Source: a virus (Duplodnaviria > Heunggongvirae > Uroviricota > Caudoviricetes). From it: DNA of 64,000 nucleotides. The stretch's first letter is position 1; each line of letters opens with the position of its first letter. Shown piece by piece: positions 1 through 22,563 of the stretch. The DNA is taken from the IMG/VR virus record IMGVR_UViG_2778261375_000003, one strand, 5' to 3'. A model generated the notes under the pieces. It did not search any database and was not told the DNA's origin. It saw nothing but the letters and a program-made list of their open reading frames with translations. The position numbers and the translations under genes were made by a program.

Positions 1-5
1 GGTTT

Positions 6-1388
6 ATGACCTCGCTGAAATCGCTCGGTGAAATGGCCGGGATGGCGCGGGACAAAATCGGATCGAATCTTGCGGACGGACTGGCGGGGCAGATTGATAA
101 CCTGCGCAAAAAGATAATTGAAAATTTTCCCAAAATTGAAGTCACCATCACAAAGGTCATAAAGGGGATCCTCTGGCTGGGTGAGATAGTCGGGCGGGTA
201 GCATTTCGGATAGTCGATGGTGTCGGAGATATCATCGAGTGGTGGGGGAAACTGGATGCCGAAACGAAAACCCTGATAGAGGTTATCGGCGGTCTGGTTG
301 TCGCCATGCGGATACTTAACTCTACTTTCTGGATGTCACCTATAGGGCTGATTACCGGTCTGATCGTGGCTCTCGGTCTCTTGTGGGAAGACTACAAAAC
401 ATGGAAAGAAGGCGGTAACAGTCTTATCGACTGGGAAAAATGGCAACCGGCAATAGATAAAGCGAAGGATGCGATCACCTGGCTTCGTGACCACCTTCTG
501 GAACTAAAAGATGGTGTTGGCGGCTGGCAAAATGCACTGGAAATCCTTGGTACATTCATCGCGGGTGTCTGGGTATCCAGGGTTCTGGGGGCTTTCGGGA
601 AAATATCAGGTTTGCCGGTCCCGCCGTGGTTAAAAGGCTGGATGGCTTATGCTGCGTATTTGTACTCTGATCGCGAAAATATTGGTGCCAGTGCGAAGTC
701 ATCCTGGGATTACACGAAACAAAATATTGGAGATTCATTGCGCTGGCTTGGCATTGATACCGATTTTGGTCGTAATCCTCATACCGTAAAAGGCGCAAAT
801 ATTCAGTCAGATATTCCAGGTGCTGAGCCGGAACAATATGCACAGGCTACGAAACGAGGAGAACGGAATAACAATCCGGGAAACCTTAATTTTGCTGGTC
901 AGGCAGGGGCTTCTCTTGAACGCCCGGGCGGGCGATTTGCCAGATTTGAAACTGCCTTTGATGGATTACGGGCTCTTGCTCGTCAGTTAATGCTGTACGC
1001 CGGACGGGGAATAAACAGTGTGGAGAAAATTATCTCTACCTGGGCACCTGCGTCTGATAATAACAACACAACAGCGTATATCAGGGCTGTATCGCAACGA
1101 CTGGGAGTGGATCCCCGGGCTGCCCTGAATATGAGCGATCCGCAAACCATGTCAGCATTGATGAGCAGCATTATCCAGCATGAGAATGGAAGAAATATCT
1201 ATTCTCGAGAGCTGATTAATAAGGCTGCCGTGGCGGGAATTAGTGGCAAAGTGACAGAGGTTAACCAGCAAAATACCTACCACATTTACGGTGGCGGAGA
1301 TCCGCACGCTGTCGGTAATGAGGTTGCACGTCGGCAACAGTCTGCAAATGCTCAGGTCATGCGAAGTAATCAGGTGAGGGTGGGTTAG
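6..1388 (+). CDS. phage tail protein (tape-measure or DNA-circulation-like), probably 5'-truncated at window edge
   Basis: Reading frame is open to the window start; hydrophobic segments then a soluble C-terminal region; stop overlaps next start (TAGTG); sits directly upstream of coupled baseplate genes. Confidence 0.45.
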   Translation: MTSLKSLGEMAGMARDKIGSNLADGLAGQIDNLRKKIIENFPKIEVTITKVIKGILWLGEIVGRVAFRIVDGVGDIIEWWGKLDAETKTLIEVIGGLVVAMRILNSTFWMSPIGLITGLIVALGLLWEDYKTWKEGGNSLIDWEKWQPAIDKAKDAITWLRDHLLELKDGVGGWQNALEILGTFIAGVWVSRVLGAFGKISGLPVPPWLKGWMAYAAYLYSDRENIGASAKSSWDYTKQNIGDSLRWLGIDTDFGRNPHTVKGANIQSDIPGAEPEQYAQATKRGERNNNPGNLNFAGQAGASLERPGGRFARFETAFDGLRALARQLMLYAGRGINSVEKIISTWAPASDNNNTTAYIRAVSQRLGVDPRAALNMSDPQTMSALMSSIIQHENGRNIYSRELINKAAVAGISGKVTEVNQQNTYHIYGGGDPHAVGNEVARRQQSANAQVMRSNQVRVG

Positions 1389-1975
1389 TGGATATTCTCT
1401 CTACACTTTTTCATCAGCAGAGCAGAAAAATAGGAATGATTGTTCCCAGTGTTGTTATTTCAGAGAAGCATACAGATATGCTTGAAATAACAGAGCATCC
1501 GGTAGAGGTCGGGGCCGCTGTCGCTGATCATGCCTATAAAAAACCGTCAGAAGTGGTGATGGAGGTTGGTTTCGCCGGTGGCGGCGCATTGCTGGATTTT
1601 GCCAGTAACCTGACGGCTACCAGCCTGCTCGGCCTGAGTCCTCAGCAGACGTATCAGGAGCTACTGGGTCTGCAGGAAAGCCGTATCCCCTTCGATGTGG
1701 TAACCGGTAAACGGCTGTACAGCAACATGTTGATCCGGGCGCTGGAAGTGACGACGGACAAGACAACCGAAAACGTCCTGTCCGCCGTCCTCACCCTGAG
1801 GGAGGTCATTATCTCCCGGACACAGCAGATTACCGTCGCGGATAAAACCAACATGAAGGAAGGGGCCAGCACGTCGGCGGTACAGAACAGCGGCAACAAA
1901 ACCACAAAGCCTCCAGATACTTCACTGCTGAAAAGCATCACGGGTAACGTGGCGTCATTACTGGGGGGCGGCTAA
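1388..1975 (+). CDS. tail-module protein, function unknown
   Basis: 195-aa ORF translationally coupled on both sides (TAGTG, TAATG) inside the tail operon. Confidence 0.4.
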   Translation: MDILSTLFHQQSRKIGMIVPSVVISEKHTDMLEITEHPVEVGAAVADHAYKKPSEVVMEVGFAGGGALLDFASNLTATSLLGLSPQQTYQELLGLQESRIPFDVVTGKRLYSNMLIRALEVTTDKTTENVLSAVLTLREVIISRTQQITVADKTNMKEGASTSAVQNSGNKTTKPPDTSLLKSITGNVASLLGGG

Positions 1976-2277
1976 TGACAATTCAGGAAATTCCGCTGAC
2001 AGCGGACAACCAGCAGTTCTGCATCGTCCTGGGTGGTGTCACCTGGCGGATTAGCATCATATGGCGCGATCTGTACTGGATTATGGACCTGCAGAACGAC
2101 AGAGGGGAGCCGGTAATCTCCGGTATTCCTCTCGTCACTGGTGCTGACCTGCTGGCGCAGTACGCCTGTATGGGGCTTGGTTTTAAGCTGGTGGTGGTCT
2201 GTGATGACAACACACAGGATTACCCCACAAAAACTGACCTGGGCGGTCGCAGCCATTTACTGGTATCAACGGAGTAA
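1975..2277 (+). CDS. hypothetical tail-module protein
   Basis: 100-aa ORF coupled to flanking tail genes; no recognisable motif. Confidence 0.35.
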   Translation: MTIQEIPLTADNQQFCIVLGGVTWRISIIWRDLYWIMDLQNDRGEPVISGIPLVTGADLLAQYACMGLGFKLVVVCDDNTQDYPTKTDLGGRSHLLVSTE

Positions 2278-2279
2278 GC

Positions 2280-3347
2280 ATGTCACAGAACTGGATGAGA
2301 CATTTCGAGCTGCAGCTTGTGGACGGGAACGGTCAGGGAATTGAGCTAAGTGATTTCAAAGTCACCTTTACGATCGACTGGTTCAACATCAGCAGCGCGT
2401 CCCGGGTAGGGACTATCAAAATTTATAACCTCTCGGCAGATACTGTGAACCGAATTACCGGGCAAGAGTTTTCGAAAGTGCGTCTGATTGCCGGTTACGA
2501 CGGTATCGCGCCGGAGGTGTCAGCAAGCGACGTCGGGACAGTGCGGGAAGTTGACGCGGCGGACGTGGGCCAGAGTGATGGTCGCAACTACGGACTGATT
2601 TTCAGCGGTGAAATTCGCTACTCGGTTACAGGAAAAGACAGTCCGGTTGATTCCTACGTCCTGATTCAGGCAGCAGATACTGATCTGGCTTTTGCCACCA
2701 GTATAACCTCACAGACGCTGGCTGCCGGTTACACGGTCGCTGATGTAAACCGTGCGCTGATGAAAGACTTCGAAGCCAAAGGCGCGACCGAAGGCCTGAC
2801 GCCTGAAATGCCTGCTACTGTATTCCCCCGGGGGCGGGTACTCTTTGGCATGACGCGGCATCTAATGGATAACGTAGCCGGGCAATGTGGCGCAACATGG
2901 CAATTCGTGGATGGTCAGCGCCAGATGGTGGCGAATAACGAATATGTTCATGAAGCGATTGTGCTCAACAGCGCTACCGGGCTTATTGGCATGCCGCAGC
3001 AGACTATCGGTAACGGCGTAAACGTCCGCGCGCTTATTAATCCGAACATCCGGGTTAACGGACTTATTCAGCTGGATCAGGCTTCCGTGTATCGTACCGC
3101 CTTGTCGAACAACGATATCGCGATGGCCGGTGGGCAGATCACTGACCAGAACACGGACGGAAATATTACGCTAAGCGGCACCACATCGCAGCCTGCCAGC
3201 ATCGCAACGGATGGCGTTTATATTGTGCGCGGGATTATGTACACTGGCGACACAAGGGGCCAGGCGTGGTACATGGATATGATGTGCGAAGCGCGCGGTG
3301 CGGCGGATCTTCGTTCGGCGTCGTCTTTACAGCGTGAGGTAGGATAG
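2280..3347 (+). CDS. baseplate hub-like protein (Mu P / P2 gpD position)
   Basis: 355-aa ORF at the position preceding the spike gene in Mu-like order N-P-V-W-J-I-fibre; assignment by synteny only. Confidence 0.45.
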   Translation: MSQNWMRHFELQLVDGNGQGIELSDFKVTFTIDWFNISSASRVGTIKIYNLSADTVNRITGQEFSKVRLIAGYDGIAPEVSASDVGTVREVDAADVGQSDGRNYGLIFSGEIRYSVTGKDSPVDSYVLIQAADTDLAFATSITSQTLAAGYTVADVNRALMKDFEAKGATEGLTPEMPATVFPRGRVLFGMTRHLMDNVAGQCGATWQFVDGQRQMVANNEYVHEAIVLNSATGLIGMPQQTIGNGVNVRALINPNIRVNGLIQLDQASVYRTALSNNDIAMAGGQITDQNTDGNITLSGTTSQPASIATDGVYIVRGIMYTGDTRGQAWYMDMMCEARGAADLRSASSLQREVG

Positions 3348-3700
3348 TGAAAAAGTGGATTGTTATTGGACTCTGTTTCCTTCCGGGGTTCGCATTTGCT
3401 GCGAATCCTGGCGGTGTCACGCTTCAGTGTGGTGGCTACAAATTAGAGTTGATTCCTGATTCATTGTTCAGGATTAATGGTGAGACAGTTACCTCCCAGA
3501 AAATCAAAACGCTCGGCAACGGTAATGGAATGAAGGCGGATATGGGGCTTATGCCAGCCAAAGACGGTAACAATTACGGTTTCGAGTTCATTCGCCGTCC
3601 GGGTACCGAAACGCGATTCCTGAATGTCCAGCTTCTGCAGAACAGCATGGATGCGCCGAAAATCATCGGATCTTTCCCTTGTAAAAAAGTGGCTGGGTGA
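3347..3700 (+). CDS. secreted/periplasmic protein with N-terminal signal peptide (moron-like)
   Basis: N-terminus MKKWIVIGLCFLPGFAFAANP looks like a cleavable signal peptide; start overlaps hub stop; not a standard baseplate component. Confidence 0.5.
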   Translation: MKKWIVIGLCFLPGFAFAANPGGVTLQCGGYKLELIPDSLFRINGETVTSQKIKTLGNGNGMKADMGLMPAKDGNNYGFEFIRRPGTETRFLNVQLLQNSMDAPKIIGSFPCKKVAG

Positions 3701-3849
3701 AGGTAACCTGAAATTCGTAACGCCTGAAAAACAACAAAATGTGCTCTAAAAACTGTTGTTTTTTGAGACGAGCGATTACACTGCACTGACTTTTTGATGG
3801 TGGATTGCCATCGATATGCTACTTCATTAAAGCCAGGAATAACTAAAAC

Positions 3850-4581
3850 ATGAGTTTAGCGCAGCCAAAATCAGGAGAACTGTTAGATCTTCTGACTCCT
3901 TCATTAACTAAGGGTGAAAACCTTCTGAGTGAGTTTGAAATCCATCGAATCATTCGTGAAGCGAAGAAACTACCTGAACGTTATCAGGGGCTATCAATTG
4001 AAGGCTTAGCTAAGCTTGTTCTTGGTGAAATAGATGAAGGATGTTCACTCTGTGAGCGGGGGTTGAGAATAGCGCCTAACGATCCAGTTTCTTTTTGTAA
4101 CTATACGATTGCGCTGCGTAACTTAGGTTTGCATGCTCGCCAGTATGTGATGATTCAGAAAGCATCTGATTCACTTAATCCAACGATATTGGCTGAGGTT
4201 GCTACAATTTCTGCATACTGGGTTGATATCGATTTGCTTGAAAAGGTGATGCCGATGCTAACTGCAATGGAAGTACCGCGCCCTGAAGATATGGGCAAAT
4301 GGTATGACACGCTCAATTATCTGCATACCCAAAAAGATCATGCTCAGGAGCTAAAAACTATTGGGCGGCTCATGATGAACGTTGCAGAAAAGTACCGCGC
4401 TCGTCTTGCTGGCGCTCATGCTTTTTATGTAATGTCAGAACTTGATACGCTGTTCGTTGAAGTCAAAACAGACGATCCAGTGCTTCTTTCGCAGATGAAT
4501 AATGCCTTGGCTGATGAGATTATTATTGCGGGGCTTGCGGATTCAGAATGCGTCGGATGCTTTGAAGCCGGGGAACTCTAA
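3850..4581 (+). CDS. hypothetical helical protein (cassette gene 1)
   Basis: 243-aa ORF after a 150-bp AT-rich intergenic region; stop overlaps next start (TAATG); no motif I can name. Confidence 0.55.
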   Translation: MSLAQPKSGELLDLLTPSLTKGENLLSEFEIHRIIREAKKLPERYQGLSIEGLAKLVLGEIDEGCSLCERGLRIAPNDPVSFCNYTIALRNLGLHARQYVMIQKASDSLNPTILAEVATISAYWVDIDLLEKVMPMLTAMEVPRPEDMGKWYDTLNYLHTQKDHAQELKTIGRLMMNVAEKYRARLAGAHAFYVMSELDTLFVEVKTDDPVLLSQMNNALADEIIIAGLADSECVGCFEAGEL

Positions 4582-5009
4582 TGTCGGTTGAGCATACCTG
4601 TTTTCTTGAATTGGCTAAGCATTCCCTGGCTCTAAACGGTGAGATGTGGACGAGAAATGCTATTAGCCGAGCATACTATGGTATGTACCATTCCGCCTTA
4701 CGGATCACCAACAATCTGGTACCGACCGCTACACAAGATGGTGAAAAACTAAAAGGTGGAGTTCACATGCGAGTCTATACGGCCTTTTGTAGTGGTGAGG
4801 CAGCTGCACTTAACGATGTTGATGTTAACGCAGTAAAGAAAATCGGCGTTAAACTGAAAATGACGCATGCCCAACGTGTTAATTCTGATTACAAGCTTGA
4901 GCGGAAAATCAACCGGATTACCGCGAGAAGTGTAATTCTGGATGCGGAAGAGGTCGATGCAATCGTTAATCAATTACTGAAGATTGGTGATGACTCGTTA
5001 ACTGCATAA
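4581..5009 (+). CDS. hypothetical protein with R-x6-H (RAYYGMYH) HEPN-like motif (cassette gene 2)
   Basis: 142-aa ORF coupled to gene 1; Arg-x6-His inside an aromatic-rich helix; followed by a strong intrinsic terminator. Confidence 0.55.
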   Translation: MSVEHTCFLELAKHSLALNGEMWTRNAISRAYYGMYHSALRITNNLVPTATQDGEKLKGGVHMRVYTAFCSGEAAALNDVDVNAVKKIGVKLKMTHAQRVNSDYKLERKINRITARSVILDAEEVDAIVNQLLKIGDDSLTA

Positions 5010-5029
5010 GCTGAAATTTCTCAAAATTC

Positions 5030-5056
5030 AAACCCGCCACTTGGCGGGTTTTTTGC
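5030..5056 (+). terminator. rho-independent terminator
   Basis: Perfect hairpin ACCCGCCA-CTT-TGGCGGGT followed by a T-run, 23 nt after the stop at 5009. Confidence 0.7.
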
Positions 5057-5073
5057 TTTCTGGAGCCTACTAA

Positions 5074-5826
5074 ATGGCAGTATCTGACCAGACCCGCAGC
5101 GGCGACCTTGCCGAAACATTTAAATCTGAACGGGAAACAACAAAGAACCAGATCCGTGTCGCCTTGCCTGGCATTGTTCAGTCATTCGCTCCTGATGCGG
5201 TGACGGCGGTTGTACAGCCTGCTATCCGTTACGTTGAAATTGATAACGACGGCAACCGCATTACCAAAAATTACCCATTGCTGGTGGATGTGCCAGTGGT
5301 ATTCCCGCGTGGCGGAGGCTGTACGCTAACGTTTCCAGTTAAAGCCGGTGATGAATGTTTGGTGATTTTTGCCGATCGTTGTATTGATTTCTGGTGGCAG
5401 AGTGGCGGGATACAGGAGCCGGTCGATGACAGAATGCATGATTTATCGGATGCGTTTTGTATTGTCGGTCCCCAGTCGCAGGCAAGGAAGATTAGCGGTA
5501 TTAATACCAGTGCCACACAGTTGCGTAGTGATGACGGCAGCACCTATTTTGAGCTTAATCCTGATACCAGGAAAATTAAAATTGTCGCTCCGGGGGGCCT
5601 TGATGTGGTTGCCCCTCTGGCTGATTTTTCTGAGAAAGTAACCATTCATGGCCTGTTAACCTGGATGGGAGGCATGGTGGGGTCTGTTGTTTCTGGTGTG
5701 GCTTCAAAAATCACTGGTGCTGTTGAGTTTTTGGGTAGCGTGAAGGCTAACGGCAAGCCAATCGATGATACGCACACTCATGGTGGTGTTCAGCGCGGTG
5801 GAAGCAATACCGACGGAGTAAAATGA
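5074..5826 (+). CDS. baseplate spike protein (gpV / Mu gp45-like)
   Basis: OB-fold-like N-terminal region and C-terminal HTHGG motif typical of V-type spikes; first gene of a coupled V-W-J-I block. Confidence 0.6.
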   Translation: MAVSDQTRSGDLAETFKSERETTKNQIRVALPGIVQSFAPDAVTAVVQPAIRYVEIDNDGNRITKNYPLLVDVPVVFPRGGGCTLTFPVKAGDECLVIFADRCIDFWWQSGGIQEPVDDRMHDLSDAFCIVGPQSQARKISGINTSATQLRSDDGSTYFELNPDTRKIKIVAPGGLDVVAPLADFSEKVTIHGLLTWMGGMVGSVVSGVASKITGAVEFLGSVKANGKPIDDTHTHGGVQRGGSNTDGVK

Positions 5827-6179
5827 TGCGATACAGACGTGAAGACGCCGATGGCGATTACACCTTTGGCAGCGGTGATGACACCTGGCTGATTAACTCA
5901 CCGGAGGCCGTGGCGCAGGCGGTAAAAACGCGATTCGAATTGTGGTATGGGCAATGGTTTCTCGACACCACCGAGGGGACTCCGTGGATCCAGTCCGTAC
6001 TCGGTAAGCAGAAGCCGGAAACCTACAACCTAGCGATCAGAAAACGCATTCTGGAAACGCAGGGCGTTAAATCAATCCTCTCTTTCAATACGACGGTGGA
6101 TACCACGACCCGACGTGTCATGTTTTCCGCTGAAATCGACACTCTCTATGGAATAACGACTGTTACATCGGAGGCGTAA
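5823..6179 (+). CDS. baseplate protein (W / gp25 position)
   Basis: 118-aa ORF overlapping V stop (ATGA) and J start (TAATG); assignment by position. Confidence 0.45.
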   Translation: MMRYRREDADGDYTFGSGDDTWLINSPEAVAQAVKTRFELWYGQWFLDTTEGTPWIQSVLGKQKPETYNLAIRKRILETQGVKSILSFNTTVDTTTRRVMFSAEIDTLYGITTVTSEA

Positions 6180-7378
6180 TGGCTCTGAACCTTGATTCTC
6201 TCGGTTTATCTGCAAAGGTAACCGCGGAGGGGATCAGTGCGCCTGATTATCAGACGATACTCAGCACCCTGATTAGCTATTTTCAGCAGATTTATGGCAG
6301 TGATGCCTACCTCGAACCGGACAGCAAAGACGGCCAGATGGTGGCTCTGATGGCGCTGGCGATTCATGATGCCAATAATATGGCGATAACTGTCTACAAC
6401 TGTTTTTCACCGGCAACCGGCTATGGGGCTGCACTGACCAGTAACGTGAAAATAAATGGTATTTCACGTAAAGGCGCGACGAATTCTACGGTTGATTTGC
6501 TTCTTACAGGAACTGCCGGGGCAACCATCATTAATGGCAGCGTGAAAGACAGTAATAATGTGATATGGCGTTTGCCTGCTTCAGTGGTGGTCGGCGTGGA
6601 TGGTACAGTGATGGTGACCGCAACATGTTCCGTCAGTGGTGCAGTGGCGGCGCTGGCTGGAACTATCACTGAAATTAATACGCCAACCCGTGGCTGGATT
6701 TCGGTAACCAATCCTGCTGCAGCTACTGTAGGCACTCCAGCAGAAACTGATGCTGAGTTACGTATCCGCCAGTCGCAAAGTGTTGCGTTGCCATCAATAA
6801 CCCCATTTGAAGCACTGGATGGTGCTGTTTCTAATGTTGCCGGTGTAACCCGCCACAAACTCTATGAAAACGATACTGGTTCGGAGGACGGTAACGGGTT
6901 ACCGCCACACTCTGTTGCTGTAATTGTGGATGGTGGTGATGTGACGGATATTGCTCAGGCTATCAGAGGGAATAAAGGCCAGGGGACAGCCACTCACGGT
7001 ACAACATCCGTTACGGTTCTGGATAAATACGGCAATCCCCATGTAATCAAATTCTCGCGTTCCAGTGATGTACCTGTTTATGCCCGGATTAAATTAAAAG
7101 TTTTTACGGGTTATACCTCACAGATAGGGCAGCAGATCCAGCAGGCTATTTCCGACTATATCAATAGTCTGATGATTGGTGATTCGGTCCTTTTAAGTCG
7201 CATTTACTCACCGGCGAATCTTGGCGTGGTGAGTGGCGGGAATGCACGCTATTACGATATTCAGGAACTGACGATTGGGAAATCCCCGGGGGCTTTGTCG
7301 TCATCAAACATTGATATCAGATACAACGAATCTGCGTCCTGTACCCCGGAAAATATCGTTATAACGGTGGAGTCATGA
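6179..7378 (+). CDS. baseplate J-like protein
   Basis: 399-aa ORF at the J position, coupled to W and I. Confidence 0.55.
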   Translation: MALNLDSLGLSAKVTAEGISAPDYQTILSTLISYFQQIYGSDAYLEPDSKDGQMVALMALAIHDANNMAITVYNCFSPATGYGAALTSNVKINGISRKGATNSTVDLLLTGTAGATIINGSVKDSNNVIWRLPASVVVGVDGTVMVTATCSVSGAVAALAGTITEINTPTRGWISVTNPAAATVGTPAETDAELRIRQSQSVALPSITPFEALDGAVSNVAGVTRHKLYENDTGSEDGNGLPPHSVAVIVDGGDVTDIAQAIRGNKGQGTATHGTTSVTVLDKYGNPHVIKFSRSSDVPVYARIKLKVFTGYTSQIGQQIQQAISDYINSLMIGDSVLLSRIYSPANLGVVSGGNARYYDIQELTIGKSPGALSSSNIDIRYNESASCTPENIVITVES

Positions 7379-8055
7379 GCAAATACACCGAACTAATCAC
7401 AAACTACCACGCCACCAAACCTAAATTTCTTGCACATGTTGATCTGATGACCCGGCCGCTTATTGATGTTGCGGCTGCCACCAGAGGGCTGATTACTGCA
7501 TTTGATATTGACTCTGCGGTTGGTGTGCAACTTGACATTCTGGGATTGTGGATCGGACGTAGCCGTGTTGTCAGCCAGCCTATCTCAGGTGTCTATTTCA
7601 GCTGGGATACCGACGGGCTTGGATATGATCAGGGGGTATGGCAGGGACCATACGATCCTGATTCCGGATACATGTACCTCAGCGATGAAACTTATCGTGT
7701 CATTCTTAAAGCGAAGATTGCGATTAATAACTGGGACGGACGGAATGATTCGCTTCCGGCAATTCTTGACGCTGCAACAGCAGGATCCGGGCTGCGAATG
7801 CAGATAGTCGATAACCAGGACATGACGATATCGGTCTGGGTCTTTCCTGATACTGATATTTCAGATGTATCGCGTGAGTTAATTGCGGCAATTAAACAGG
7901 GGTATCTCACAGTAAAAGTCGCCGGGGTATGGGCGGGTGGCATTGAAACACCTTCGGTGGAAACCCCATCGGAAGGCTCAAAATTTTTTGGTTTTGATAT
8001 GGATAACGAATTCATCAGTGGTTTTGATGTAGGAGCATGGGGAGTATTACTCTGA
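7375..8055 (+). CDS. tail protein I-like (baseplate wedge)
   Basis: 226-aa ORF at the I position; stop overlaps fibre start (TGATG). Confidence 0.5.
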
Positions 8056-8828
8056 TGGCGAAAAATGACTTTAAAGCGTTTGCAACGGATCGAAATGCCA
8101 ATGTTATATCGCAGGAGGAATGGGAAGCGTTGCCCGCGCTTTTATCCGGATTTACAGCAGGGAAAGCCTCCAGTGCGCAAGTCAATAAGGTTATTCGGCA
8201 GGCCAGCTTTATTGCTGCAGCTCTGGCCCAGTTTGTAAGTGATAAAACGCAACGGGATGTGCTTGATAATGGTGATCTGCCCGGTTTTGTTGAATTGCTG
8301 GGATCGGGGTTTGCTGTTGAATACCTGAGCCGCAAGAATCCGTTTGGTGATATCAAATCGGATGGCACGGTGAAAACGGCTCTCGAAAACCTTGGTTTGG
8401 GAGAAGGTTCGGCATTACCCGTTGGTGTGCCTGTCCCGTGGCCTTCCGCCACTCCGCCAACAGGCTGGCTAAAATGCAATGGTGCGGCTTTTTCTGCTGA
8501 AGAATACCCGGAACTGGCAAAGGTTTATCCGACAAATAAATTGCCTGATTTACGCGGTGAATTTATTCGTGGATGGGATGATGGGCGTGGGGTGGATTCC
8601 TCTCGTGGTTTGTTGACATCTCAAGACCATTTATTTGCTTCTCATGGGCACTGGTTTGACAAGTACTATGCGCTAACAGGTTTTGATACAACGGGAGGTC
8701 GGTTCGTAGTTACGGCTGATGCTTTCGGGGAACTTATTAAGGCAAATTCAATTTCTACGGTATCGGTTGGTGGTTCTGAAACCCGGCCGCGCAACGTCGC
8801 ATTTAACTATATCGTGAGGGCAGCCTGA
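8055..8828 (+). CDS. short tail fibre protein with tail-collar-like domain
   Basis: Start taken at ATG 8055 ([12 protein letters not shown]...); motif [22 protein letters not shown] resembles the phage tail collar domain. Confidence 0.6.
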
Positions 8829-9430
8829 TGAATAAAGCCGTATTAAATAACGAACTCATTGCCATAAAAGCGGGAGACATTACCATTTATAATTATGATG
8901 GTGAAACGCGGGAATATATTTCCACATCAACTGAATATCTTGCGGTTGGCGTCGGTATACCGGCATGCTCCTGTTTAGATGCTCCTGACTCATATAAAGC
9001 TGGTTATGCAATCTGCCGTTCTGCAGATTTTAACTCATGGGTATATGTGCCAGACCACCGTGGTGAAACGGTATATAGCACTGAAACAGGAGAATCAAAA
9101 GAAATCACAGCTCCGGGTGATTACCCTGAAAATACAACCACTATCGCCCCGTTAACGCCATTCGATAAATGGGATGGTGAGAAATGGGTGACCGATACTG
9201 AGGCACAGCATTGCGCCGCAGTAGACGCGGCAGAAGCACAGCGTCAGTCACTGATTGATACTGCAATGGCTTCCATCAGTCTGATTCAACTGAAATTGCA
9301 GGCCGGGCGGAAGCTGACGCAGGCAGAAACCACCCGACTTAACGCTGTGCTGGATTACATTGACGCGGTGACGGCAACAGATACCAGCACCGCGCCGGAT
9401 GTCATCTGGCCTGAACTGCCGGAGGCGTAG
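8828..9430 (+). CDS. tail fibre assembly chaperone
   Basis: 200-aa ORF coupled to the fibre gene (TGATG); C-terminus ...DYIDAVTATDTSTAPDVIWPELP shared with the convergent chaperone. Confidence 0.6.
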   Translation: MNKAVLNNELIAIKAGDITIYNYDGETREYISTSTEYLAVGVGIPACSCLDAPDSYKAGYAICRSADFNSWVYVPDHRGETVYSTETGESKEITAPGDYPENTTTIAPLTPFDKWDGEKWVTDTEAQHCAAVDAAEAQRQSLIDTAMASISLIQLKLQAGRKLTQAETTRLNAVLDYIDAVTATDTSTAPDVIWPELPEA

Positions 9431-9842
9431 GCCATTCAATATCTGGCGCACCGGAAGTATCGACCAGTTCCAGTGCGTCCAGGTAATCCAGCCACAAATT
9501 ATATTGCGCCAGTTCGTCACCTTTCAGACGACCAATAGCCGCTTTACCAGGCCATTGTTTACTGTTCATATAATCGTTGGCCTGATTAATCAATTGCTGC
9601 TTCTCCAATTCGGCTGCAGCAATTTGTTCCTCATGTGTTGGTGGTGGAATTTCGGACCATGCAGGAAAACCATTTTCTCCAGCGATACGGATTTTTCCTT
9701 TCGGCGGTAATCCGGAAAACTCAATATACACTTGCTCATCAACTTCAACAGCATCATCTGGCCATGAGTCAGCTTGAGTGTAATCCTCTTTCATCCCCAG
9801 CGGATAGAAAGAGTTTGTAGTCGCGGAATATATGTAATTCAT
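9402..9842 (-). CDS. tail fibre assembly chaperone (U-like)
   Basis: 146-aa ORF directly downstream of the long fibre gene; C-terminus ...DYLDALELVDTSGAPDIEWPTPP; 3' end overlaps the + strand chaperone by 29 bp. Confidence 0.6.
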   Translation of the reverse strand: MNYIYSATTNSFYPLGMKEDYTQADSWPDDAVEVDEQVYIEFSGLPPKGKIRIAGENGFPAWSEIPPPTHEEQIAAAELEKQQLINQANDYMNSKQWPGKAAIGRLKGDELAQYNLWLDYLDALELVDTSGAPDIEWPTPPAVQAR

Positions 9843-9863
9843 TTTTCACTCCATATAGCTAAA

Positions 9864-11798
9864 TTAACAGCCTAACGCTAAAAATGAAGCGCCGAGGCCA
9901 GGAGTACTGGCTCTGGATATAAATTTAACCGGGTCGGGACTAAAACCTGCACAGGCAATATAACCAACAGCCCCGCTATCTGGTGTGTAGTCTTGTGAGA
10001 CCAAAACACGCAGACATCTGTTTGGAAATGCAATCGGGAAATGGGTTACTACATCCTGTGCAATGCCTGGTGCGCCGATTGAGCCCCACTGAAGAATAAA
10101 ACCTGATGGTAATTTTTGATATCCAGTACCTGAAACAGAAAGCGTGAAGCTACCCATATCAGGTATCTGATTCGCCCCTGTCCCTACATTCCTTTTAGCC
10201 GCTTCTCCCAAACCAAGGTATTGGATAACGGCCAGTGTGCTTGTTTTAGCCAGAATATCGCGACCGACTGACGTTAAATCAGTCTGAGCTACCGTATCCT
10301 TACCAGTGAAATAAGGCAGTTTGTTTGCACCAGTCGCAAGGGCAGCGAGAGCGGTTAAAGTTGCATCCAGAGGCTGTTTGCCTGCCAGCGCATTTGTCAT
10401 TGTTGTCGCAAAGTTCGGGTCATTGCCAAGTGCTGCGGCAAGCTCATTCAGGGTATCAAGAGCTTCTGGTGATGAACCAACCAATGCGGATATGGCAGCT
10501 CTTACATAAGCGGTCGTAGCAATCTGCGTGTTATTCGTACCCTGTGCAGCGGTAGGCGCAGTAGGGACACCCGTTAATGCAGGGCTTGCCAAAGGCGCTT
10601 TGAGAGCCAAGGCATTGTTGATAGTTGTGCTGTAATTCGGGTCGTTATTGATCGCAGCAGCTATTTCTTTAAGCGTATCCAGTGTGCCAGGCGCACCGTT
10701 GATAAGTGCAGTTATAGCTGCCTTAACAAAGGCTGTATTTGCGATCTGCGTGTTATTCGTACCCTGTGCAGCGGTAGGCGCAGTAGGTATTCCCGTTAAT
10801 GCAGGACTTGCTAAAGGAGCTTTAAGAGCCAGAGCATTGTTGATAGTTGTGCTGAAATTCGGGTCGTTATTGATCGCAGCAGCTATTTCTTTAAGCGTAT
10901 CCAGTGTGCCAGGTGCACCGTTGATAAGTGCCGTTATAGCTGCCTTAACAAAGGCTGTATTTGCGATCTGCGTGCTATTTGTACCTTGCGCTGCCGTCGG
11001 CGCGGTTGGCGTTCCTGTCAGACTCGGGCTTTCTATTGGCGCTTTGGTATCAGCCAGATCTTTTATAGACTTAACAGCTTTAGGGGTAGCCGCCATTGTT
11101 TCGCTGTCGCTGTTAGTTGCGCTACTGAGCTGAACTAATCCCTTTTGCGTTGTGCTTGCATCCTGTGCCGTATACTTGCTTTTCGCCAGATCGTAGGCTT
11201 TTTTAACTGCCAGCGAACTTGCAGCAACATCACTTCTGGTACTGGTTACAGAGTCTGAAATATCAATGCCGATCGAGCGGTTGATACGCTCGGATGTATC
11301 AATCATCTCCTGGGTAATGGCAGATACACTAGCAGGGATATTCACCGTACAAACAAGCAGCTCCCCATCTCCTAACTGATATGAATCGGTATAGGTTCTG
11401 GCAACAAATTCAGCCGCATGAATATGTGACGCGGTATTCACCTGGTAGGTATCTTCTCCAAGGAGGTATCTTCCCTTCAGCACAATTGCATATTTCTTGC
11501 CTGCACTAAGTGCAAGAGAAATATCCTTACGTTGCTGAATAGTTACCTGGTAAAATTCACCAATATCCACCGACGCCGCGCCTGCGGTTTTATCACCATC
11601 CACTGAGGTAATTAACAGGTTCATCCCACCGCCAGGCTTAGGTAAGAAACCGGCATAAAATCCCGGGTCAACAATCCCCCTGAATTTTCGGTTTAGCGCG
11701 GCTGACAGATATGGTTCGTGGTATTGCACATCGGCCACCAGAGCCAACGACTCGGATGATGGGTAAGTAACCGATGTAACAACTGTAACGTCATTCAT
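9864..11798 (-). CDS. tail fibre protein (S-like, long fibre)
   Basis: Start taken at MNDVTVV (ATG about 11798, AAGGA upstream); conserved [21 protein letters not shown] fibre motif; three tandem copies of a roughly 74-aa repeat ([30 protein letters not shown]...). Confidence 0.75.
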
Positions 11799-11809
11799 CA
11801 AGCATATCC

Positions 11810-12244
11810 TTATGCTGTAGTCGTGTTTATGGCCATAACTGCGGTATATGTTTTGCCCACATACAGCGAGTCTTCCTGGACACAAATAATGGCGATTGGC
11901 TTGTTCTCGTTATCCAGAACAACCAGAGTGTTGAATGGGTAGTTTTTCCCTTCCTGCAACTGGCTTTGATCAAGGTCCATTCGGACAGTAATTATCCCGC
12001 CTGAGTAGGTTGGGACGAGGTTGATGGTGCAAAATTGACTGGTCAGTTCTGCCAGTTCGAAAGCCTTTGGCAGTTCTCCAATCTCATAAGTGCCATCTCC
12101 TTTCTTAGTAACCAGCGAACTGGTACCGAAAACGGCCTTGCTGATTAAAAATCGAGAGCCTTTGTTAATGGACGATTCAGCGCGCCGCTGATAGTAATAG
12201 TCCAACAACTGACTCTTATAGAGGTTTGTTGAGACGTCAGACAT
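11810..12244 (-). CDS. tail/baseplate-associated protein
   Basis: 144-aa ORF immediately upstream of the fibre gene on the same strand. Confidence 0.4.
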
Positions 12245-12322
12245 GATTTTCCCTAATCAATGTTGTGAAGCCTCATTGTAAGATAAGTAACTTGTCACCC
12301 CGCCCTGCGGACGGGGTGATTA

Positions 12323-13162
12323 TCAGGCATCACTATCCAGCAGCAAATCATCTGCGCGGGTGCGATCAAACGTAGGCGTTGCTTTCACAATAGTGCCGCC
12401 CGGCGTTGCAGTGATCGGAGCGCTAATCGACGTAACTCCAGTAAGCGAAGTTGTATCCGAAGTTTCAAACCAGCAGTACGCTTTTTCGGTATCAGAAATC
12501 TCGTTCAAAGTGATCATGTCGGCGTGTTCATTTACAACAACCGACAAATAGAGCGTAAGCCCATCAAACACTATATGCAGTGGCAGTAGAGGCTTTACGA
12601 ACTGATTAAACTTTCTGAGAATTTCTTCTGTAATTGCGGACTGATCTATCGTGCCAGTAATCCCCATTGTCCGGGCCAGGTCGTTTATGGGAATACTGAT
12701 CATCCCTCTGGAAGTCAGAAACATCTCGCCGAATGTGCCGCCGGTAGTCTCCAGTGTGCTTTCAGGTATTAGAACCGTGCCATAGGGATGACGCTCAAGG
12801 TCCACCGGTGCATATATCGGATCCCATAAAACAGAAATACCGTTAAATTCGCGGTAAATTGTCTGGTTTATAGGGCGTTCAGTCCCCTTAAAGTGAATCT
12901 CATCAAGACGCTGTTGTAACAACATCGGAACGGAAGATGAGTTCGACGTTCTGATAGTAAAGAACTGGCCAAGTTCATTTGTCCTGGTCTCCAGATCCTC
13001 CTTGCTCATGGAAAAAATAGACTTCCGGTTGGTAATTCGCTCCAACCATGGGTCAACAAAGGTATCCATCATTGACTGAACCAAATCAGCCAATGATTTA
13101 TAGAGCAATGACTTTTGCTTAGCTGATGTAAGCCGGTTATTAAACCAGGAACGCTGCATCAC
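12323..13162 (-). CDS. baseplate wedge protein
   Basis: 279-aa ORF whose start overlaps the upstream J-like gene; position only. Confidence 0.4.
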   Translation of the reverse strand: MMQRSWFNNRLTSAKQKSLLYKSLADLVQSMMDTFVDPWLERITNRKSIFSMSKEDLETRTNELGQFFTIRTSNSSSVPMLLQQRLDEIHFKGTERPINQTIYREFNGISVLWDPIYAPVDLERHPYGTVLIPESTLETTGGTFGEMFLTSRGMISIPINDLARTMGITGTIDQSAITEEILRKFNQFVKPLLPLHIVFDGLTLYLSVVVNEHADMITLNEISDTEKAYCWFETSDTTSLTGVTSISAPITATPGGTIVKATPTFDRTRADDLLLDSDA

Positions 13163-14592
13163 TCCTCCTCATACGAAATATTAAAGGTGGAGTTTTCTGT
13201 ATCCAGATAAACGAAATCGTAAAAGCCGTTGGACTCATTCCACTCGACAAATTCCAGATAAAAGTCGCGGAAATAACCCAGCGTTTCGATAAATGCCCAA
13301 ACGTCTTTTTTCTTGATTAGGATGTACTTGCCAACACGGTTCGGATCAAAGAAAGTTGAGTCACGCCCAAATTTTGTTTCCAGTGCCGACTTCAGCTCAT
13401 CAGTCACGTTCTCAATGGTCAGGCTTGCCGATATCCGCCCGGTGATGGTGATCTTAAAGGGTAGTTTTCTGACCTCTTTATACGAGAATTTCTTGTTCAA
13501 CTCATTCGGCACCTTCTTAAAGGCAGCCAGGATCATTTCTTCAAGCTCTGACTGGCTTTTGTTTGGATGCCATCCTGAAATAAATATCTTATTGATATTC
13601 CGAACATTATAAGCACCATCTAATTTCTCTTGCTGGCCTTCGCCCCATGCCTTTACCCAGGACAGTCCCGGGATGTTACGCACCAGAAAATACGTATAGT
13701 CCCCGCCCCATACGACCTGATCATCATAGGCAAGGTAATATTGTGCACGATTACGTGTGATCTCCGTTGTTTCGGCATCGGTACCTGCGGTTATGGGTGT
13801 CATTGTCTTAACTGAAATCAAATTAGCTAAATTAGCCGCAGAATCGACAGGCGTCAGATTTTGGCCAGCAACCAAGGTTATATCTCCGTTGGTGCACCAT
13901 ACCTTAAGTGTAATGGTCGAGCCTTCTGGCGGTATTTGCCCAATTAGCCCATCACCGAATCGAACCCCCAACTGCTCGGATGGTTTATAAAACTCAACGT
14001 AGACCTGGCTTTTACTACCAGCTAACCGGAACATAGTGCTGGAAGACCACTGCGTGGTCTTACCATCGGTCGTCACGAATACTTCCAGCTTATAGCAGAC
14101 AGCAGTGAGAGCCTTTGATAACACGACTTCCAGAAATTCTTTGGCTGCCGTAACGGTATATGTCACCTCCTGGATTTCCAACTGTGCCACTTCTACCGTA
14201 CCGGTGCCGTCAACCAACCTGCATACATCCATAGTTATGTAAGGGTACTGGTCGTCAGATATTAAAGGCATGTTTTTGGGGATTACCGCTGGAGCATCTT
14301 CACTTGTGGCGGTGATCTCAATCATCCCCGATGACGGTGTTGGCTTGGTACCAACGTAACTATTCGTTTCTGCCGCTGCCAGGATAGAGGAACGCCGCGT
14401 CGCGGTCGATATAAAGCCTTCAGCCAGCGCCGCATCGGCATACTGAAAGCACCTGTAGACAATCTGGGTAATAAACAATGTCAGCATCGAGACAAATTGA
14501 GAGCCGACAAACTTCGACCAGAATGAATCTTTCTCGACAAGCTCTTCAAACTCTGCACGAATACTGTCTTTAGTCGGTGTTGTTTTACTCAT
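13159..14592 (-). CDS. baseplate J-like protein
   Basis: 477-aa ORF between gp25-like and wedge genes, coupled on both sides. Confidence 0.45.
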   Translation of the reverse strand: MSKTTPTKDSIRAEFEELVEKDSFWSKFVGSQFVSMLTLFITQIVYRCFQYADAALAEGFISTATRRSSILAAAETNSYVGTKPTPSSGMIEITATSEDAPAVIPKNMPLISDDQYPYITMDVCRLVDGTGTVEVAQLEIQEVTYTVTAAKEFLEVVLSKALTAVCYKLEVFVTTDGKTTQWSSSTMFRLAGSKSQVYVEFYKPSEQLGVRFGDGLIGQIPPEGSTITLKVWCTNGDITLVAGQNLTPVDSAANLANLISVKTMTPITAGTDAETTEITRNRAQYYLAYDDQVVWGGDYTYFLVRNIPGLSWVKAWGEGQQEKLDGAYNVRNINKIFISGWHPNKSQSELEEMILAAFKKVPNELNKKFSYKEVRKLPFKITITGRISASLTIENVTDELKSALETKFGRDSTFFDPNRVGKYILIKKKDVWAFIETLGYFRDFYLEFVEWNESNGFYDFVYLDTENSTFNISYEEE

Positions 14593-22249: not shown

Positions 22250-22563
22250 GTATTTTTAAGTCACAAATGCTATCTTTTCGCATCATATTGACCTTTTAAT
22301 CGTTCAGGCTTATAGTTCCGCCGTCGTAGCAAATTCTGCGACCGGGTTTAGCAGCCTGAATGATTGTGCGGACAGCCGCAGATATCCGATATTGCGGTAT
22401 TTTTGTGTCCGTAAAACCGTGTTACGCCCAAATTATGGTGGGGCGTGATGGGGAGGCTTCGGCCTGCTGGTTTCACAATCGCCAGTCTGCTAACCCCGTC
22501 ACGTCCTGCCACCTGTTTAGCAGCGGGTAGCAGGTTGTTAAACCTGATTGTGAGGCCGTAACT

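Follow-up and report, generated by a model that had tools for sequence, protein, structure and literature searches.

A P1-like phage-plasmid whose tail-fibre repeat array probably gained an in-frame chimeric unit by unequal recombination

Main finding

The tandem repeat in the tail-fibre gene of this P1-like phage-plasmid is very probably the b-repeat of the P1 Sc region carrying one extra in-frame unit, which would have arisen by unequal recombination and would add one module to the fibre shaft. The repeat itself has long been known, being annotated as b1 and b2 in the P1 GenBank records, and the feature is real but ordinary, a familiar repeat of a textbook phage gene in one of its less common alleles, longer by one module. 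What is new is the chimeric nature of the extra unit, the position of its crossover at the longest stretch that the parental units share, and a polymorphism of one to four units with independent origins. No description of the chimeric unit, of the crossover mapping, or of this copy-number polymorphism was found in the literature searched, and these details fit the general pattern of modular fibre evolution. Throughout, the window is the whole 64,000-nucleotide stretch of DNA analysed, and all coordinates refer to it.

The array lies in gene S of a P1-like phage-plasmid

The original prediction, made from the DNA letters and a list of open reading frames, placed the repeats inside a long tail-fibre gene. 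The placement held up, since the gene has P1 homology and Pfam matches to Phage_fiber_2 and Gp53-like_C, but "long" does not suit a product of 644 aa when that of P1 has 988 aa. Rightwards of about position 10203, megablast gave 96-99.9% identity to P1, P7, RCS47, SJ46, and phi456, and the same region matches several hundred P1-like plasmids (624 plasmid records). The genes upstream of S (R, 16, bplA, pmgA, and sit) stand in the order known from P1, and P1's C4 antisense RNA and P1 tRNA genes occur elsewhere in the window. Together with an exact match to the P1 late promoter LPs, this degree of identity and this gene content identify the array-bearing gene as the tail-fibre gene S of a P1-like phage-plasmid. 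The minus-strand ORF that holds the array runs from 9864 to 11885, with a TTG at 11885 as its upstream start. The true start of S is the ATG at 11798 and not this TTG, because the product then opens MNDVTVV exactly as P1 gpS does; in a protein alignment, the N-terminal 274 aa are identical to those of P1 gpS. The features of the operon are as follows.

12275-12293, minus strand: late promoter LPs of the R-S-U operon (-22 and -10 boxes), an exact match to the annotated P1 LPs
11810-12244, minus strand: gene R, for tail-fibre structure or assembly, located upstream of S in its operon and assigned by the position and product of P1 R and by Pfam Phage_P1_tail_fiber_R in the precomputed annotation
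9864-11798, minus strand: tail-fibre gene S (644 aa), from the ORF list, P1 homology, and Pfam Phage_fiber_2 and Gp53-like_C
10216-11798, minus strand: Sc, the P1-type constant part of S; homology to P1 begins near 10203, and the end is set at the cixR crossover by alignment to P1 cixR
11175-11210, minus strand: P1 "repeated element a0" (36 bp), exact match to P1 a0
11043-11174, minus strand: P1 "repeated element a1" (132 bp), exact match to P1 a1

The P1 records M81956 and NC_005856 annotate four repeated elements in Sc, namely a0 (36 bp), a1 (132 bp), b1 (222 bp), and b2 (222 bp). Read in the codon phase of the annotated b1 and b2, the array consists of three consecutive in-frame units of 222 bp (74 aa) on the minus strand, which together make up 666 bp (10377-11042).

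10821-11042, minus strand: u1, b1-type repeat unit (aa 253-326), 95.9% identical to P1 b1, phase as in M81956
10599-10820, minus strand: u2, the extra unit (aa 327-400), which has no counterpart in P1; nt 1-75 b2-type and nt 76-222 b1-type
10377-10598, minus strand: u3, b2-type repeat unit (aa 401-474), 91.0% identical to P1 b2

Tandem Repeats Finder, run on positions 8000-14000, returned a single array at 10522-11003 with a period of 222, 2.2 copies, 92% matches, no indels, and a score of 831. In the phase chosen by the program, 12 of 222 positions distinguish the two full copies (10522-10743 and 10744-10965), an identity of 94.6%. Identity drops to only 45-50% in the neighbouring 222-bp blocks to the left and right, taken in the same register, which places the repeat far beyond chance. 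The tandem 222-bp repeat first proposed, with two nearly identical units and a diverged third, is thus real, and the peptide consensus quoted for it occurs in the units; the interval originally given, 10520-10990, covers both near-identical copies but does not span the full array. Unit by unit, u1 and u2 are 86.9% identical in DNA and 91.9% in amino acids, u2 and u3 69.4% and 73.0%, and u1 and u3 62.2% and 68.9%.

The extra unit is a chimera of b2-type and b1-type sequence

P1, P7, RCS47, and SJ46 align with the window over 1876 bp against 2098 bp in the window, a difference of exactly 222 bp, and the extra b2/b1 hybrid unit is missing from all four. At the protein level, S has an exact, clean insertion of 74 aa relative to P1, and phi456 has it too. 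The first 75 nt of u2 share 92% identity with u3, 85-92% with b2-type units, and 69% with u1, and the remaining 147 nt (76-222) are 98.6% identical to P1 b1. By its two-part composition, u2 is a chimera in which 75 nt of b2-type sequence at the 5' end are followed by 147 nt of b1-type sequence, with informative sites placing the switch between unit nt 69 and 81. P1 b1 and b2 are 63% identical to one another, and their longest in-register identity is the 11-nt stretch ACGCAGATCGC at unit nt 70-80, which encodes TQIA. That the join in u2 falls at this longest shared stretch is the signature of unequal exchange.

In the mechanism that we propose, the b2 of one DNA copy would have exchanged unequally, in register, with the b1 of another, leaving a hybrid unit in the middle of the array. 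Because the shared stretch is so short (11 nt), the primary event was most likely replication slippage or short-homology recombination. Once the duplication had formed, the array held perfect in-register runs of 58 nt (u1/u2) and 44 nt (u2/u3). The homology requirements of RecA are the basis for expecting crossing-over to be easier at identities of this length, and the two runs should permit RecA-type unequal crossing-over towards four units or towards loss of a unit. The change preserves the reading frame and does not touch the baseplate-proximal N-terminus or the receptor-binding tip joined at cix. The expected outcome is one module more in each chain of the trimeric fibre shaft; any effect on adsorption we infer.

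Copy number varies from one to four units among relatives

Invariance of the repeat count across relatives had been named in advance as the observation that would refute the proposal, and it was not seen: relatives carry one, two, three, or four units, each of these states being represented on closed plasmids. Copy number is therefore polymorphic, with two units in the majority, and all alleles from one to four units remain in frame. Among the best 120 protein clusters found with Sc, a list biased towards the query, 78 have two units, 39 three, and 3 four. Evenly spaced sampling of the PLSDB hits gave 29 full-length matches, 28 of them with the 1367-bp length of two units and one with the 1589-bp length of three, and two Escherichia fergusonii plasmids of the sample have a 1145-bp span, that is, a single unit. 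Their one unit is a hybrid reciprocal to u2, with b1-type sequence as far as nt 39 and b2-type sequence starting at nt 45; the 1-unit allele might conceivably represent the ancestral state and not the product of a deletion. An Sc match was found in 542 of 5,426 closed E. coli genomes, and at least 10 replicons among the 288 full-length records have three units. Seven of the 3-unit records are 99.9% identical, so much of the spread of this allele is clonal and not recurrent.

Other alleles of the array differ in their make-up. In the 3-unit allele of NZ_CP150020, the middle unit derives from that allele's own u3 and u1 and differs from the u2 of the window. The D6-like lineage includes one closed plasmid with three units and another with four, the latter (NZ_AP027678) having two identical units. 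The middle unit of NZ_CP150020 and the identical pair of NZ_AP027678 show that the duplication arose independently at least three times. The D6-like allele is the only 4-unit allele on a closed plasmid, those of P1 type being partial proteins from draft assemblies that are possibly mis-assembled.

Phage phi456, a myovirus that can be induced, produces plaques on E. coli MC1061 (PMC10967188). As it carries the 3-unit S of the window, the 3-unit fibre is functional in a live phage. Alleles with three units are joined to Sv parts of several lengths, as judged from the window (644 aa), phi456 (819 aa), and the protein lengths of the listed matches. We considered whether extra units compensate for a short Sv and set the idea aside, as an informal comparison of protein lengths made no coupling apparent and inversion pairs one Sc with two Sv parts.

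Alternative readings of the third unit

A mis-counted tandem repeat would be a natural suspicion, given that the window belongs to contig NOEJ01000003.1 of a draft assembly (GCA_002517405.1) and that a 222-bp unit is about as long as a short read. Closed replicons, NZ_CP030784.2, NZ_CP074369.1, and NZ_CP117721.1 among them, nevertheless carry a 3-unit Sc at 99.9-100% identity, the genome of the isolated phage phi456 has the same 3-unit Sc, and the 12-29 differences per 222 positions between units allow reads to be placed unambiguously. We therefore consider an assembly artefact very improbable.

A bolder alternative accepts the third unit and makes of the array a dedicated contingency device, in which frequent expansion and contraction within lysogen populations would tune fibre length to the host surface alongside inversion of the C-segment. 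The duplications with at least three independent origins, the existence of products of both gain and loss, the perfect in-register identities of 44-58 nt within the 3-unit array, and the place of the array directly beside a known host-range switch all speak for such a device. Set against these are the mere four states observed, the two units in 28 of 29 full-length matches of the spread sample, the largely near-clonal descent of the 3-unit alleles, and the primary crossovers, which used no more than 5-11 nt of identity and hence imply rare events; a unit of 222 bp that stays in frame also sets the array apart from known contingency repeats. On balance, a dedicated high-frequency device is improbable, though less so than a mis-counted repeat. 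The claim that the b-array is a recombination-driven length tuner, with RecA-type crossing-over yielding variants of two, three, and four units at a measurable rate in a single lysogen lineage, is somewhat less improbable again, but we still think it unlikely. The preferred reading remains the P1 Sc b-repeat with one extra unit gained by unequal recombination.

The repeat unit as a fibre-shaft module

Each unit encodes a 74-aa module with an N-terminal half rich in Pro, Thr, and Ala that ends in TQIAxTAFV and a C-terminal half with LDTLxExAAAxxNDPN. The description of the units as "collagen-like" in the original prediction proved wrong, as Gly makes up 5.9% and Pro 8.1% of the repeat region, the repeats contain no G-X-Y run, and the only run of three or more such triplets in S lies outside them. 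Nor do the units belong to Phage_fiber_2 of Pfam (PF03406, "phage tail fibre repeat"): a search with the three b units by themselves gave no match to this 42-residue profile, which falls on aa 196-252, i.e., the a0/a1 elements just upstream (E=6e-23). The sole Pfam matches to the b units, MtrD and Acyl-CoA_ox_N, were rejected as compositional false positives that pass the gathering score only when units are summed; they have been carried over into the precomputed annotation of proteins with three or four units.

The unit was found by tblastn in 844 phage records, and its C-half alone in mycobacteriophage minor tail proteins. An exhaustive profile-free search with a cut-off of E<=0.001 yielded 32,422 representative proteins, and in many of them 10-23 stretches match. 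Among the best 150 of these representatives, the core motif occurs 0-20 times per protein, most commonly at a spacing of 74 aa and next at 39 and 36 aa, the shorter spacings representing the N-half repeated alone. By these searches, the b unit is a widespread fibre-shaft module, and variable copy number appears to be a general way in which such fibres evolve.

Among solved structures, the C-half resembles 9d93, "tail collar fibers gp4" (E=5e-9), and the N-half 9k09, "tail fiber protein" (E=0.006); P1 S is not among the solved structures matched by either half. An AlphaFold2 prediction of aa 196-500 made without an alignment had a mean pLDDT of 40.5, too low for interpretation. With each extra unit, the trimeric shaft would plausibly become longer by one module.

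The antisense open reading frame is a by-product of the repeats

An antisense ORF at 10648-11133 had been reported and called spurious, and it is present exactly as described.

10648-11133, plus strand: antisense ORF (161 aa, TTG start), wholly inside S, judged not to be a gene

That it is a by-product of the repeats is borne out by the growth of the open frame with copy number: the plus-strand frame through the repeats has at most 72 codons in the 1-unit allele, 91 in P1 with two units, and 165 here with three. The frame is bounded on the left by a TAA at 10633, opposite the Asn-Tyr codons (AAT TAC) of u2, and it stays open through u1 because u1 has Phe at the position of that Asn-Tyr.

Apart from the presence of a 161-codon open frame, little would recommend a real small hydrophobic protein, which we consider next to impossible. 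The frame follows the number of repeats (91 codons with two units, at most 72 with one), no clear ribosome-binding site was seen upstream of its TTG start, and the product, repetitive and rich in Ala, Val, and Ile, is what results from translating the strand complementary to an Ala/Thr-rich gene. None of the related records inspected annotates the ORF. Its third codon positions coincide with those of S, so dN/dS is of no use in judging it.

The invertible cassette and the junction with a resident prophage

The array ends 161 bp upstream of the cixR crossover, beyond which S continues into a variable part, Sv, that is not homologous to P1 Sv.

10206-10225, unstranded: cixR-type crossover site at the Sc/Sv boundary, crossover at 10215/10216, outer half identical to P1 cixR
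8383-8402, unstranded: cixL-type crossover site inside the collar-fibre gene of the adjoining non-P1 prophage, from the inverted repeat and comparison with P1 cix
9864-10215, minus strand: Sv, the variable C-terminal part now fused to Sc, with Gp53-like_C (PF21882) on aa 562-644
9402-9842, minus strand: tail-fibre assembly gene (U equivalent) serving the current S, Pfam Caudo_TAP (E=8.5e-37)
8393-10215, unstranded: invertible cassette of 1823 bp, which carries the gene pair Sv'(collar)/U' on the plus strand and U/Sv on the minus strand and has the cix inverted repeat at its bounds

An inverted repeat of 24 nt (8383-8406 and 10202-10225, 92% complementary) delimits the cassette, and the layout is that of a Cin-type C-segment, with two inverted cix sites around convergent Sv/U gene pairs. 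Within the window, no invertase gene adjoins the cassette, which is flanked on the left by fibre and baseplate genes of the other phage and on the right by P1 Sc; cin and pinE adjoin a second copy about 95 kb away on the same contig.

The left part of the window (1-9665) is not P1. It matches, at 98% identity, the tail and baseplate module found in myovirus prophages of 42 kb, namely vB_EcoM-606R2 and its kin, with SEN34 as a distant relation. This module ends with a collar-type fibre gene, and the fibre genes of the two phages converge on the cassette. Where the non-P1 prophage sits in a chromosome in its ordinary form, pinE comes after the same cassette. The contig of which the window is part is 271 kb long. 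Its second cassette copy lies some 95 kb further along, as insertion predicts, and is flanked on one side by P1 darA-lydB-lydA-lydC-cin and on the other by pinE and the E. coli core genes pphA, rsmF, pqiAB, proQ, and prc. From one cix core to the other, the two copies do not differ at a single position (100% identity), and what separates them is a full-length P1-type genome (about 95 kb).

It is possible, though doubtful, that this strain really has a P1-like plasmid inserted in a resident prophage, brought there by recombination inside the shared cassette or at its edges. The contig may instead be a mis-join, in which the assembler threaded a circular plasmid into the chromosome through the collapsed shared repeat; the assembly graph alone gives the same picture for both, leaving them indistinguishable. 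A second example of the junction was sought among 5,426 closed E. coli genomes, in which no site covers at least 80% of window positions 7000-11000. The chromosomal P1-like elements OU349840.1, APEC17, and PK8241 are none of them joined by way of an invertible tail-fibre segment: OU349840.1 and APEC17 retain an intact C-segment of their own beside cin, and PK8241 has no cin and no inverted cassette at that place. All three, having no cassette junction, must have integrated elsewhere. Pfeifer and Rocha reported that integrated P1-like elements adjoin resident prophages, for a cause that "remains to be clarified" (PMC10879196), and recombination in a shared cassette is a concrete candidate route for such integration beside prophages.

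Implications

The alleles of one to four modules, as products of probable unequal exchange, show that the Sc shaft is not strictly constant. Were the length-tuner reading true, P1-like phages would have heritable heterogeneity in fibre length which, together with inversion of the C-segment, could widen adsorption across LPS, O-antigen, and capsule depth. P1-like phage-plasmids are common, with about 9-10% of closed E. coli genomes having this tail-fibre operon, and as they spread resistance genes and serve as delivery vectors, a change in fibre geometry could affect host range. For engineers, the alleles offer a natural guide to sites at which shaft modules may be added or removed. For annotators, the repeat is a source of both a spurious antisense ORF and spurious Pfam matches.

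Comparison with known systems

The closest known system is the b1/b2 array of P1 Sc, which has the same gene, the same place between a1 and cixR, and the same 222-bp size and codon phase; that P1 has two units and the window three is an allelic difference, and membership in the P1 b-array stands. Beyond the P1-like group, a P2 tail protein has a full-length equivalent of u3 at 82% amino acid identity. The full 74-aa b2-type unit recurs at 80-85% in P2, Xuanwuvirus, a Yersinia phage, and phage 500465-2, and the full unit at 64-68% in Goslar and JenK1. These P2-type and other enterobacterial fibres differ in unit number and context, the direct b1-b1'-b2 order being specific to P1-like Sc. Other predicted phage fibres share the motifs and the modal period of 74 aa, but their arrays reach 10-20 copies against one to four in P1-like phages.

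Collagen-like repeats are known in phage receptor-binding proteins, for example those of Streptococcus thermophilus phages. Those arrays are likewise in-frame repeats in fibre genes that recombine and vary in length, but their unit is the 3-aa G-X-Y, whereas the P1 units have 74 aa and lack a G-X-Y periodicity. Contingency repeat loci have units of 1-9 nt, and a change in copy number shifts the reading frame or promoter spacing at high frequency; the b-array, with its 222-nt unit and with every 1-4-unit allele in frame, falls outside that class. The Cin/C-segment, Gin, Pin, and Min switches resemble the repeat change in varying the same fibre. Cin-type inversion, however, is site-specific, reversible, and enzyme-catalysed, and exchanges the receptor-binding tip, whereas the repeat change would be a homology-driven shift of copy number in the shaft that requires no dedicated enzyme.

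Tail-fibre cassette among unrelated phages

An identical 146-aa assembly protein is encoded in tail operons of Mu-like, P2-like, SEN34-like and P1-like type (loci L013-L022), and the cassette in these four operon types is therefore apparently the same one. In most of the contexts shown among these loci, a resolvase-family invertase gene adjoins the assembly-protein gene. These operons clearly exemplify a single tip-and-chaperone cassette circulating among unrelated myoviruses. In the window as assembled, one invertible cassette lies between two convergent fibre genes from unrelated phages (8037-11798), and one inversion would swap the receptor-binding tips between both of them. The reading frames are compatible with such a swap, the residues ...LGL at the cix crossover site ending both constant parts. 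A collar tip is fused to the constant part (Sc) of the P1 fibre in NZ_AP027678, and a Gp53-like tip occurs on fibres of both Mu-like and P2-like prophages.

Junctions with a SEN34-like prophage and the P1-type backbone

On contig NOEJ01000003.1, a full-length P1-like genome (~95 kb) is apparently inserted in a chromosomal SEN34-like prophage. The junctions and the backbone markers are as follows.

Window 1-10215: left junction, meeting P1 Sc at 10216, in the order prophage fibre, cassette, P1 Sc
NOEJ01000003.1 record, ~224-226 kb: right junction, in the order P1 cin, cassette, pinE and E. coli core genes
Window 22310-22516 and 44358-46214: C4 antisense RNA of P1 immI together with the a1/b1 target of this RNA; also three tRNA genes, all as in P1

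Two copies of the 1.8-kb invertible tail-fibre cassette, 100% identical to each other, flank the ~95-kb P1-like genome. Either the P1-like genome integrated into the prophage via the shared cassette, or the join between prophage and P1 is the path that the assembler took through a collapsed repeat. The same P1/prophage junction was absent from the 5,426 closed E. coli genomes searched. Integration via the shared cassette, if true, would be one possible route by which P1-like phage-plasmids enter the chromosome. The three tRNA genes are Asn-GTT, Thr-TGT and one with a CAT anticodon; these genes and the C4 antisense RNA, occurring as they do in P1, confirm the rest of the window as P1-type backbone.

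Annotation of the S gene and its repeats

The cixR coordinates in the public record M81956 look like an annotation slip: "crossover site cixR" and the repeated element b2 are given identical coordinates there (2005-2226), and the boundary between Sc and the variable part, Sv, truly lies at 2388/2389. In the mechanical ORF, the tail-fibre gene S is extended upstream through window 11799-11885 to a TTG that overlaps the last part of gene R. The same extension is present in some NCBI protein records (e.g., P0006, 675 aa). The conserved start is that of P1, the ATG at 11798.

The 74-aa b unit is covered by no Pfam family, though more than 32,000 representative proteins match it. When at least three units are present (window 10377-11042), MtrD (PF04207, 28.5 bits) and Acyl-CoA_ox_N (PF14749, 26.7 bits) exceed the cut-off of 25, but these are unrelated families lifted above their gathering scores by the repetition, and we rejected both as b-unit domains. 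The precomputed annotation of three- and four-unit S proteins (matches P0001-P0032) carries both false domains.

Sc alleles with one b unit occur in the E. fergusonii plasmids NZ_CP099340, where S is without annotation in the PLSDB table, and NZ_CP053046, where it is annotated as intact. The crossover in these alleles is at GCGCC (unit nt 40-44), a short shared stretch that differs from the one used in the b-unit duplications.
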